From: Escherichia coli
GTDB taxonomy: Bacteria; Pseudomonadota; Gammaproteobacteria; Enterobacterales; Enterobacteriaceae
Strand: one strand, 5' to 3'
DNA: 64,000 bases
Assembly (NCBI RefSeq): GCF_044324785.1
Contig: NZ_CP172127.1
Shown: positions 21,901 through 24,900 of the stretch, piece by piece
Position numbering within the stretch: the first letter of the stretch is position 1
Layout: the number at the start of each line of letters is the position of its first letter
Program-made: the position numbers

Positions 21901-24900
21901 AGGGATTCTTTCGGTTCAAAGCTTCCCAGCTATGCAAATACGTCCTTGATAGCTGAACGAATATTGGCTTTTTTAATACACCTTCTCTATGGATTGCTGG
22001 TTGATAACAAAATCACTACACTAACGCCGTTCTCAACGGGGTGCCACGCAGACGCGTGCGCTGAGAAAATACCCGTCGAACCTGATCCGGATAACGCCGG
22101 CGAAGGGATTTGAGGCTCCTTCTCAAGTCCTTTGCCACTCTTTTTTGAGGTGCAAAGTGTTAAAAAAATATCTTCCGTTACTGTTGCTGTGCACAGCGCC
22201 CGTTTTCGCTAAACCCGTTCTGACCGTCTACACCTACGACTCCTTCGCCGCCGACTGGGGTCCAGGTCCGGTGGTTAAAAAAGCCTTTGAAGCCGACTGT
22301 AATTGCGAACTGAAACTGGTGGCGCTGGAAGATGGCGTTTCGCTTCTCAACCGTCTACGGATGGAAGGCAAAAACAGCAAAGCCGATGTGGTGCTGGGGC
22401 TGGATAACAATCTGTTAGATGCCGCCAGCAAAACCGGGCTGTTTGCTAAAAGCGGTGTGGCAGCGGATGCCGTTAACGTTCCCGGCGGCTGGAATAATGA
22501 CACTTTCGTCCCGTTTGATTACGGCTATTTCGCCTTCGTCTATGACAAGAACAAACTGAAAAATCCGCCGCAAAGCCTGAAAGAGCTGGTTGAAAGCGAT
22601 CAAAACTGGCGGGTGATTTATCAGGATCCGCGCACCAGCACGCCGGGACTGGGTCTGCTGTTGTGGATGCAAAAAGTCTATGGCGATGACGCCCCACAAG
22701 CCTGGCAGAAACTGGCGAAGAAAACGGTCACGGTCACCAAAGGCTGGAGCGAAGCCTACGGCCTGTTTTTAAAAGGTGAAAGCGATCTGGTCCTGAGTTA
22801 CACCACCTCTCCGGCTTATCACATTCTCGAAGAGAAGAAAGATAACTACGCCACCGCGAACTTCAGCGAAGGTCACTATTTGCAAGTGGAAGTCGCCGCC
22901 CGCACCGCTGCCAGCAAGCAGCCAGAGCTGGCGCAAAAATTCCTCCAGTTTATGGTTTCTCCGGCTTTCCAGAATGCGATCCCAACCGGCAACTGGATGT
23001 ATCCGGTGGCAAATGTCACGCTGCCTGCCGGGTTTGAACAATTGACCAAACCGGCAACCACGCTGGAGTTCACGCCAGCCGAAGTGGCGGCACAACGTCA
23101 GGCATGGATTAGCGAATGGCAACGCGCCGTCAGCCGTTAATTCCCGGCTGGTTAATTCCAGGTGTAAGCGCCGCTACGCTTGTGGTGGCGGTTGCGCTGG
23201 CGGCGTTTCTCGCCCTGTGGTGGAACGCGCCGCAGGGTGACTGGGTGGCAATCTGGCAGGACAGCTACCTGTGGCATGTGGTGCGCTTCTCCTTCTGGCA
23301 GGCGTTTCTCTCGGCGCTACTCTCTGTCGTACCCGCGATATTCCTCGCCCGCGCGCTCTATCGCAGGCGCTTTCCGGGTCGGCTGGCGCTGTTGCGTCTG
23401 TGCGCAATGACCTTGATCCTCCCGGTGCTGGTTGCTGTTTTCGGCATTCTTAGCGTCTATGGTCGCCAGGGCTGGCTGGCATCGCTCTGCCAATCGCTCG
23501 GTCTGGAGTGGACCTTTTCGCCCTACGGCCTGCAAGGTATTTTGCTGGCGCACGTATTTTTTAATCTGCCGATGGCGAGCCGCTTATTACTCCAGACACT
23601 GGAAAACATTCCCGGCGAACAACGTCAGCTTGCCGCCCAGCTTGGGATGCGCGGCTGGCATTTTTTCCGCTTCGTCGAATGGCCGTGGTTACGGCGACAA
23701 ATCCCGCCAGTTGCTGCGCTTATCTTTATGCTCTGTTTCGCCAGCTTCGCCACCGTGTTGTCGCTGGGGGGCGGTCCGCAGGCGACCACTATCGAACTGG
23801 CTATTTATCAGGCGCTGAGTTACGACTACGATCCCACCCGCGCGGCGATGCTGGCGCTGATCCAGATGGTTTGTTGCCTTGGGCTGGTGCTGTTGAGTCA
23901 GCGACTAAGTAAGGCCATTGCGCCCGGCACCACGCTGCTGCCAGGCTGGCGCGACCCGGACGATCGTCTGCATAGCCGCATTTGCGACACGGTGTTAATT
24001 GTGCTGGCGCTGCTGCTGTTGCTACCACCGTTACTGGCGGTGATCGTCGATGGGGTAAATCGCCAGTTGCCGGAAGTGCTGGCACAACCGGTGCTGTGGC
24101 AGGCGCTGTGGACCTCGTTGCGTATTGCGCTGGCGGCAGGCGTATTATGCGTAGTGCTGACCATGATGCTGCTATGGAGCAGTCGCGAACTGCGGGCGCG
24201 GCAAAAAATGCTGGCGGGTCAGGCGCTGGAGATGAGCGGCATGTTGATCCTCGCCATGCCGGGGATTGTGCTGGCTACGGGCTTCTTTTTACTGCTCAAC
24301 AACACTATCGGCCTGCCGCAATCTGCTGACGGCATTGTGATTTTCACCAATGCGTTAATGGCGATCCCTTATGCGCTGAAGGTGCTGGAAAACCCGATGC
24401 GCGATATCACCGCGCGTTACAGTATGTTGTGTCAGTCGCTGGGCATTGAAGGCTGGTCACGCTTAAAAGTGGTGGAGCTGCGCGCCCTGAAACGCCCACT
24501 GGCGCAGGCACTGGCCTTCGCTTGTGTGCTATCGATTGGTGATTTTGGCGTGGTGGCGTTGTTCGGTAACGATGATTTCCGCACCCTGCCGTTTTATCTC
24601 TACCAGCAAATTGGCTCCTATCGCAGCCAGGACGGCGCGGTCACCGCGTTAATTCTGCTGCTACTCTGTTTTCTGCTGTTTACCGTGATTGAAAAACTAC
24701 CGGGGCGAAATGTTAAAACTAACTGATATCACCTGGCTTTACCACCATTTGCCGATGCGTTTTAGCTTAACGGTGGAACGGGGCGAGCAGGTGGCGATCC
24801 TCGGGCCAAGCGGCGCGGGTAAAAGTACCCTGCTGAATTTGATCGCCGGTTTTCTGACGCCAGCCAGCGGTTCGCTGACTATCGACGGCGTTGATCACAC

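Follow-up and report, generated by a model that had tools for sequence, protein, structure and literature searches.

Introduction

Two described systems meet at the locus analyzed here. In Escherichia coli K-12, TPP-dependent control of both translation and mRNA level has been measured for the leader of tbpA (thiB), and the promoter itself does not respond to TPP (Grondin et al. 2024, PMC11487190). TPP is bound mainly co-transcriptionally, blocks 30S binding and lowers the mRNA level, and an anti-P1 stem characterizes the ligand-free state (Chauvier et al. 2021, PMC8609307; PMC11487190). For the K-12 allele, a Kswitch of about 227 nM has been determined (PMC8609307), and mutation of G35 within the CUGAGA motif abolishes regulation (PMC11487190). 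Expression of the native fusions was reported to be low; in thiC a Rho site is located within the riboswitch, and part of the coding region appears to be required in tbpA, as in thiM (PMC11487190). The second system is ECs0073 of O157:H7 Sakai, which encodes EspY2, is located outside prophages and is transcribed (PMC5931665, PMC2241611). An N-terminal WEX5F motif has been defined for EspY1-5, and translocation has been reported for EspY1, EspY3, and EspY4, but not for EspY2 (PMC6313403).

In the present work, we analyzed a stretch of 64,000 nucleotides from E. coli (contig NZ_CP172127.1, in the following termed the window) in which both elements lie side by side. We are confident that the element preceding thiB is the native TPP riboswitch of thiBPQ (the tbpA riboswitch/SroA), that it resides beside the known espY2 islet and that its control should be the same as in strains that do not carry the insert. 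Both the espY2 gene and the riboswitch with its mechanism have been published, and the NCBI pipeline annotates them automatically in an identical genome. What is added here is limited to a base-precise map of the junctions and to the recognition that the insert resides in an intergenic gap of zero length.

Results

Gene order and identification of the riboswitch

Over the tested region, the window is 100% identical to E. coli TUM1886 (NZ_CP128970). The genes are arranged in the order leuB-leuC-leuD, sgrS/sgrT (minus strand), sgrR, espY2 (minus strand), riboswitch, thiB, thiP, and thiQ. In tblastn comparisons, SgrR from the window proved 98-99% identical to other E. coli SgrR proteins, and ThiB shares 99% of its amino acids with K-12 ThiB. 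The genes flanking the islet and the riboswitch are as follows:

19330-20988, plus strand: sgrR coding sequence, 552 aa (TUM1886 annotation); its last codon, GAG, and its stop codon, TAG, stem from the junction and the insert
22157-23140, plus strand: thiB coding sequence, 327 aa, GTG start (TUM1886 annotation); first gene of thiBPQ, riboswitch-controlled
23116-25408, plus strand: thiP and thiQ, both intact (TUM1886 annotation, open reading frames)

An Rfam cmscan of positions 15000-30000 returned two families only, SgrS at 19036-19262 on the minus strand and the TPP riboswitch (RF00059) at 22027-22126 on the plus strand. The latter scored 66.1 bits (E = 2.1e-11) at a gathering score of 54.3 bits, and the match spans model positions 1-105 of 105 and is not truncated. 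A chance match to the TPP model was considered and ruled out by the E-value of 2e-11. The NCBI annotation of TUM1886 places the riboswitch on identical bases (L001 5328-5427, equivalent to window positions 22027-22126). The element forms the 5' UTR of thiB on the same strand, with the GTG start (22157) located 30 nt past the Rfam match. Its parts are:

22027-22126, plus strand: TPP riboswitch aptamer (RF00059), with P1 formed by 22032-22036 and 22110-22114
22121-22133, plus strand: 3' strand of the anti-P1 helix (leader positions 93-105), predicted to pair with positions 75-87 in the ligand-free state through 13 canonical or GU pairs
22130-22157, plus strand: hairpin sequestering the SD and the start codon (CUUUGC...GCAAAG) in predicted folds; it holds the SD GAGG at 22147-22150

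All 22 base pairs of P1-P5 taken from the Rfam alignment are of the Watson-Crick type in the window sequence and yield a three-way junction built from P1, P2/P3, and P4/P5. The pyrimidine sensor CUGAGA and the pyrophosphate sensor ACCUGAUC.GGAUAA.GCC.GCG.AGGGA are both present and align with the model consensus, and neither of these TPP-contacting motifs changes across 34 leaders. The thiB aptamer does without P3a, an extension that is optional in the Rfam model.

When the leader was folded in ViennaRNA without constraints, the minimum free energy structure contained the anti-P1 helix (-48.4 kcal/mol vs. -39.5 kcal/mol with P1 enforced). The extended form of this helix, in which positions 75-87 would pair with 93-105, agrees with the published failure of the stem to form in a 104-nt transcript. 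With the extended anti-P1 helix enforced, the SD is not fully unpaired in the ViennaRNA fold. Because the SD is not cleanly freed in these constrained folds, the details of switching are taken from the published experiments with K-12 and not from folding.

The leader, counted from the putative +1 to the start codon, comprises 131 nt, and 129 of these are identical to K-12. The two substitutions are adjacent (+22 and +23) and both fall into the apical loop of P3. Leaders that are 100% identical to that of the window are found at insert-free sites (H61, H62). The first-pass annotation, which had proposed an intact TPP riboswitch at 22030-22130, is thus borne out in both respects: the Rfam borders differ by 3-4 nt, and the integrity of the element follows from the full-length match, the near-identity with K-12 and the occurrence of the same leader at sites without the insert. 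At an identity of at least 95%, 5398 of the 5426 complete E. coli genomes contain the segment from -37 to +132, and the leader is better conserved between strains (98-100%) than the flanking sgrR and thiB (94-98%). A comparison of 34 distinct leaders from enterobacteria showed no variation in the aptamer core, the anti-P1 partner, the sequestering strands CCUUUGCC/GGUGCAAAGUG, the SD or the start codon. The sole variable part is P3, which still forms a hairpin in about 30 sequence variants across the Enterobacteriaceae; the other helices do not vary and therefore provide no covariation signal.

The thiB promoter

A consensus scan called no sigma-70 site at the thiB promoter. As the hexamers match the consensus at only 7 of 12 positions and were missed by the scan, we placed the promoter by homology and conservation, i.e., from the 5' end of K-12 SroA, the published numbering and conservation across genera. 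The following elements were assigned in this way:

21994-21999, plus strand: putative thiB -35 hexamer TTGCTG, 3/6 to consensus, at -35 to -30 from G22029, with a 17-bp spacer to the -10 hexamer
22017-22022, plus strand: putative thiB -10 hexamer TACACT; TACA[AC]T occurs at a fixed distance from P1 in nearly all Enterobacteriaceae loci
G22029, plus strand: putative transcription start (+1), by homology to the 5' end of K-12 SroA (75608)

If 22029 is taken as +1, the published numbering is reproduced: G35 falls within CUGAGA, G121 within the SD, and G129-U130-G131 form the start codon.

Junctions of the insert and the layout of empty sites

Alignment to the empty sites of strains NGF1 and K-12 places the left junction at 20982/20983 and the right junction at 21991/21992. 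Both were derived by anchored string comparison of the window with empty sites; a MAFFT alignment that put the final ~60 nt of sgrR from the empty site on the right of the insert was rejected in favor of this procedure. With the slash indicating the junction, the empty site reads ...GGATCCA/TGATTGCTGGTTGATAAC..., the left junction of the window ...GGATCCA/GAGTAGCTTGCGCC... and its right junction ...CTCTATG/GATTGCTGGTTGATAAC... The corresponding features are:

20983-21991, no strand: espY2 islet, 1009 bp, 42.3% GC; relative to the empty sites in NGF1 and K-12, a single nt has been replaced, namely the T of the sgrR stop codon TGA
20982-20992, no strand: left junction zone AGAGTAGCTTG, a possible decayed copy of the target ATGATTGCTGG (6/11 identical)
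21989-22000, no strand: right junction ATGgATTGCTGG, corresponding to the target ATGATTGCTGG plus one extra G; identity to the empty site is unbroken from 21992

At the left junction the sgrR stop codon is overwritten, CCA/TGA being converted into CCA GAG TAG, and SgrR is extended from 551 to 552 aa with ...DPE as its new end. In line with this, all filled alleles that were examined have an sgrR of 1659 nt, and all empty ones an sgrR of 1656 nt. Relative to the putative transcription start, the right junction falls at -38/-37, 2 nt upstream of the -35 hexamer and 35 nt before the Rfam match. The core promoter is retained from -37 downstream and all DNA further upstream is AT-rich insert. The insert boundary is therefore located upstream of the riboswitch, as had been claimed, and it falls close to the right edge of the predicted range of 21880-22030. 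The placement of the insert between sgrR and the thiB promoter/riboswitch likewise holds, with the qualification that the sgrR stop is overwritten and that the native sequence is retained only from -37 downstream. The same junctions, to the base, are present in TUM1886, O157:H7 H2495, EAEC 042, E22, and LR-58-2, and this identity in five strains indicates a single insertion event.

At empty sites, the thiB -35 hexamer follows immediately on the stop codon of sgrR, leaving no intergenic DNA to spare. The distance from the sgrR stop to P1 amounts to 38-41 nt in 26 of the 45 Enterobacteriaceae loci in which it was measurable. One locus that had come into consideration as a promoter disruption (H72, strain PapRG-06-5) was rejected as such, as it represents an empty site with a different spacer allele. 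For the outgroups, species-representative genomes, including E. albertii, Escherichia sp. MOD1-EC7003, Salmonella, Citrobacter, Enterobacter, Kosakonia, and Lelliottia, were scanned for the aptamer core and the sgrR-thiB junction was retrieved. Neither E. albertii and Escherichia sp. MOD1-EC7003 nor about 45 further species of Enterobacteriaceae gave an EspY2 match between sgrR and thiB, and the junction GGATCCATGATTGC of empty E. coli is also present in E. albertii and MOD1-EC7003. As the outgroups share the compact, empty layout, we consider the compact state ancestral.

Content, distribution and origin of the espY2 islet

Within the insert, three features are discernible:

21217-21786, minus strand: espY2 coding sequence, 189 aa, with the WEX5F motif W47-E48-TLRNL-F54 (open reading frame and its translation)
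21110-21129, no strand: hairpin of high GC content with T-runs on either strand; as a candidate bidirectional terminator, it may stop transcripts of espY2 as well as read-through from sgrR
21787-21991, no strand: AT-rich right arm of the insert, ~40% GC, the putative site of the espY2 promoter and 5' UTR, divergent from thiB

The PGAP name for the identical protein WP_001550597.1 is 'T3SS effector EspY2', and in a tblastn comparison EspY2 from the window exhibited 88.9% amino acid identity over the full 189 aa to the espY2 product from the same locus of O157:H7. Judged from its sequence, the open reading frame is the orthologue of ECs0073 (EspY2) and encodes a putative effector of the EspY family. 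EspY2 yielded no Pfam match, and NCBIfam returned only a weak match to FcpB (E 0.011) that is far below the cutoff.

Of the 5426 complete E. coli genomes, 1046 carry the islet, in all cases as a single chromosomal copy at the sgrR-thiB locus, and the carriers include lineages as distant as O157:H7, EAEC 042, and ST69. With 42.3%, its GC content is lower than that of sgrR (55.5%) and thiB (53.6%). The atypical GC content, the patchy distribution and the absence from the same site in outgroups identify the islet, as far as can be judged from sequence, as horizontally acquired. A tblastn search in phage records gave no match, and no mobility gene (integrase or transposase) fits into the 1 kb. A repeat search of the insert revealed neither clean terminal inverted repeats nor a clean target duplication. 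Among inverted pairs, the best one (20993-21020 and 21847-21874) is weak (28 nt, 71%); its left arm starts exactly at the proposed left end of the insert and its right arm is not terminal, residing 117 nt inside the right end.

Between strains, the identity of the insert ranges from 94.7 to 96.6% and its divergence is in step with that of the flanking genes, which suggests that the insert is old. The right arm is nearly identical in the window, O157 and LR-58-2. A variant of ~1.5 kb, which is annotated as a pentapeptide-repeat protein or pseudogene, is present at the same site in LR-58-2 and ST69-type strains, and the 189-aa EspY2 form looks like a deletion derivative of this longer variant.

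Discussion

Presumed retention of thiamine regulation

Since the core promoter and the entire leader are unchanged, riboswitch control of thiBPQ should equal that in insert-free strains. This expectation combines the identity of the leader with the experiments on K-12 that place TPP control within the leader, and thiamine regulation should accordingly have been kept despite the insert. Transcription would start at about G22029 from a weak sigma-70 promoter, and the first ~86 nt of the transcript would fold into the three-way-junction aptamer. Co-transcriptional binding of TPP would then stabilize P1 and leave the downstream hairpin to hide the SD GAGG and the GUG start, with the consequence that translation of thiB would be blocked and the mRNA level would decrease. 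When TPP is absent, the anti-P1 helix would break up the aptamer and favor access of the ribosome. The entry point of the islet would have been the one position at which the sgrR stop meets the thiB -35 hexamer.

An intact riboswitch does not preclude that the insertion changed thiB transcription, be it through an UP-like element, through silencing of the H-NS type or through a terminator that ends read-through from sgrR. We regard such a change as rather unlikely. The right junction is only 2 nt away from the -35 hexamer, the adjoining right arm has a GC content of only ~40%, and the insert DNA at -38 to -60 contains a T-tract, GGCTTTTTTAATAC, that is a candidate for an UP-like element. Furthermore, the terminator-like hairpin at 21110-21129 is now situated between sgrR and thiB, whereas empty sites, with 38 nt from stop codon to P1, offer no room for a terminator. 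On the other hand, the thiB core hexamers and the leader are unchanged, and many lineages have kept the insert, which diverged together with its flanks; this suggests that it carries no strong cost. An altered rate of transcription qualifies the statement that regulation is undisturbed; it does not contradict our main reading of a native riboswitch that operates as in strains lacking the islet.

It appears improbable that the main role of the element is to provide SroA, a stable sRNA of 93 nt that would act in trans, and not to regulate thiB in cis. The K-12 annotation indeed places SroA (b4762) over exactly the riboswitch segment, and a study in Salmonella has reportedly linked SroA to the tigecycline response, which would speak for a function in trans. 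Against this stand the invariance of the SD, the start codon and the anti-P1 elements across genera and the direct demonstration that the leader controls thiB translation and mRNA level in cis (PMC11487190). Roles in cis and in trans are not mutually exclusive. The notion that E. coli ancestrally had espY2 at this site, with the empty state of ~80% of the strains having arisen by deletion, could draw on the divergence of the insert, which reaches that of the core genes on either side, and on carriers as diverse as O157:H7, EAEC 042, and ST69, but is hardly tenable in view of an empty E. coli junction that exactly matches E. albertii and a separate Escherichia species (GGATCCATGATTGC...), a compact layout of stop codon abutting promoter throughout the Enterobacteriaceae, and the atypical GC content of 42%. 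Secondary loss of the islet via recombination with empty alleles, though not the primary event, is likely.

Survival of two adjoining genes

How sgrR and thiB, without any spacer between them, could both have survived the insertion of a native-riboswitch-sparing islet may be explained by a target duplication. Strain UTME-10 is instructive in this respect. Here, sgrR ends with the ancestral CCATGATTGCTGG and is directly followed by the left end of the insert, CGCCTTTTTGCGGTCATGAGCGCG..., such that a pristine ATGATTGCTGG immediately precedes the CGCCTTTT... of the insert's left end. In this strain, 2.1 kb of unique DNA, an arrangement encountered in one genome only, take the place of the riboswitch together with thiB and the 5' part of thiP. 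It is plausible that a duplication of ~11 bp of target sequence arose upon insertion and decayed at the left; this proposal builds on that one genome and on the weak similarity at the left junction of the window. The left copy of the target would have supplied the sgrR stop and would later have decayed while keeping a stop codon, and the right copy would have preserved the thiB -35 hexamer. A decayed target duplication may thus explain why both genes kept their signals.

Insertions at the sgrR-thiB boundary also occur elsewhere, as exemplified by a 147-bp palindromic element in Salmonella diarizonae and by ERIC-like elements in other genera. It is conceivable, though we give the idea little credence, that the boundary between the sgrR stop and the thiB -35 is a recurrent insertion hotspot in the Enterobacteriaceae that is tolerated by virtue of a target duplication of ~11 bp, and that in espY2 carriers the AT-rich upstream DNA might put thiamine uptake under the influence of H-NS or a virulence regulon. 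The locus illustrates how two spacer-less adjoining genes can outlast an insertion between them, and the roughly 1000 filled and 4400 empty genomes constitute a natural experiment on the upstream context of a riboswitch-controlled promoter.

Comparison with known systems

The closest relative of the element is the thiB (tbpA) riboswitch/SroA (b4762) of K-12, with which it shares the locus, the strand relation, the operon, P1-P5, the anti-P1 helix, the SD, the GUG start and the -10 and -35 hexamers. The two differ in the DNA upstream of -37, which is sgrR coding sequence in K-12 and DNA of the espY2 islet in the window; in addition, K-12 has setA between sgrS and leuD, and the window does not. 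The E. coli thiM and thiC riboswitches belong to the same aptamer family, bind the same ligand and likewise exert translational control by SD sequestration that is coupled to effects on the mRNA (PMC11487190), but they serve other operons and have other expression platforms than thiB. The islet finds its counterpart in espY2 (ECs0073) of the O157:H7 Sakai/EDL933 type, where the same insert is bounded by the same junctions and contains the same 189-aa open reading frame with its WEX5F motif; the O157 allele is 94.7% identical to the insert of the window at the nucleotide level and 88.9% at the amino acid level.

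Structure of the espY2 islet

The 1009-bp espY2 islet, which lies between sgrR and the -35 hexamer of thiB, contains an imperfect inverted repeat:

Window 20993-21020 and 21847-21874: arms of a 28-nt inverted repeat, 71% complementary

The left arm begins exactly where the insert proper would be expected to start, directly after the 11 nt that may represent a copy of the target. The other arm ends 117 nt short of the right junction of the islet, and the two arms therefore do not constitute a clean pair of terminal repeats; the repeat may be due to chance.

A longer islet variant of approximately 1.5 kb served for comparison:

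L003 (strain LR-58-2) 3786-4622: segment of the ~1.5-kb islet variant, compared with window 21130-21216

The segment at window 21130-21216, located 3' of the espY2 stop codon, can be aligned to the pentapeptide-repeat coding sequence of this variant. By comparison with the variant, ~180 bp of repeat sequence and ~335 bp of non-coding DNA at the 3' end have been lost from the form with the 189-aa EspY2. The longer variant, for its part, carries an annotation as a split gene or pseudogene.

Sequence variation around the sgrR-thiB junction

Across window 19330-23140, sgrR and thiB differ to an unusual degree among E. coli strains (94-98% nucleotide identity), and the 165-nt promoter-plus-leader between the two genes is 98-100% identical across the E. 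coli strains compared. At empty sites, i.e., junctions without the islet, a second allele of the thiB promoter spacer occurs in strains PapRG-06-5 (L126) and Escherichia sp. MOD1-EC7003 (L122), with TTGCCGCGTCGCCGTAAACTCAC in place of TTGCTGGTTGATAACAAAATCAC and with the -10 hexamer and the leader unaltered.

On the other side of sgrR, SgrS is intact in the window (227.6 bits in the Rfam scan). The interval from the leuD stop codon to the SgrS 3' end (window 19003-19035) lacks setA, which in K-12 is located between sgrS and leuD. The gene is also missing in NGF1, O157:H7 H2495, LR-58-2, and PapRG-06-5 and is present in UTME-10 as in K-12.

In E. coli UTME-10, DNA found in no other of the 5426 genomes stands in place of the TPP riboswitch, the thiB gene and the 5' portion of thiP:

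L127 4287-6391: UTME-10 replacement DNA, ~2.1 kb

This DNA starts with a fragment of the left end of the espY2 islet, which directly follows an ancestral sgrR stop/-35 sequence that has remained intact. UTME-10 should lack the ThiB-dependent thiamine transporter.

Insertions in related genera

The stop/-35 junction at which the espY2 islet resides in E. coli is occupied by a different element in Salmonella enterica subsp. diarizonae:

L120 4799-4943: imperfect palindrome, ~147 bp, between the sgrR TAA and TGATTGCTG

It reads AGCCTTGT...CAGTTTGAACACGGGCAG...CTGCCCGTGTTCAAACTG...ACAAGGCT, and the riboswitch 3' of it is intact (67.8 bits). At three Citrobacter loci, a 14-nt mini-hairpin, GAGCCAGCTCTTAA, separates the sgrR TAA from TTGCTG:

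L006, L086 and L011, ~14 nt directly 3' of the sgrR stop: mini-hairpin

The mini-hairpin may represent an excision footprint, as its ends are similar to the termini of the palindrome in Salmonella.

A further element resides within the thiB riboswitch:

L006 (Citrobacter werkmanii), about 9740-9913: ERIC-like element, about 120 nt, inside the P3 loop

It recurs in the P3 loop at L125 (C. amalonaticus) and L109, and extends the leader to 252-254 nt versus 131 nt. With the element in place, a scan at the Rfam gathering threshold did not report TPP in L006 or L125; the aptamer core is nonetheless present in both. At the locus labelled L063, an ERIC-like element is situated upstream of the promoter, not in the P3 loop. 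The ~120-nt P3-loop sequence, GTGAATCCCCAGGAGCATAGA...GTGACTGGGGTAAGCG, resembles the ERIC consensus.
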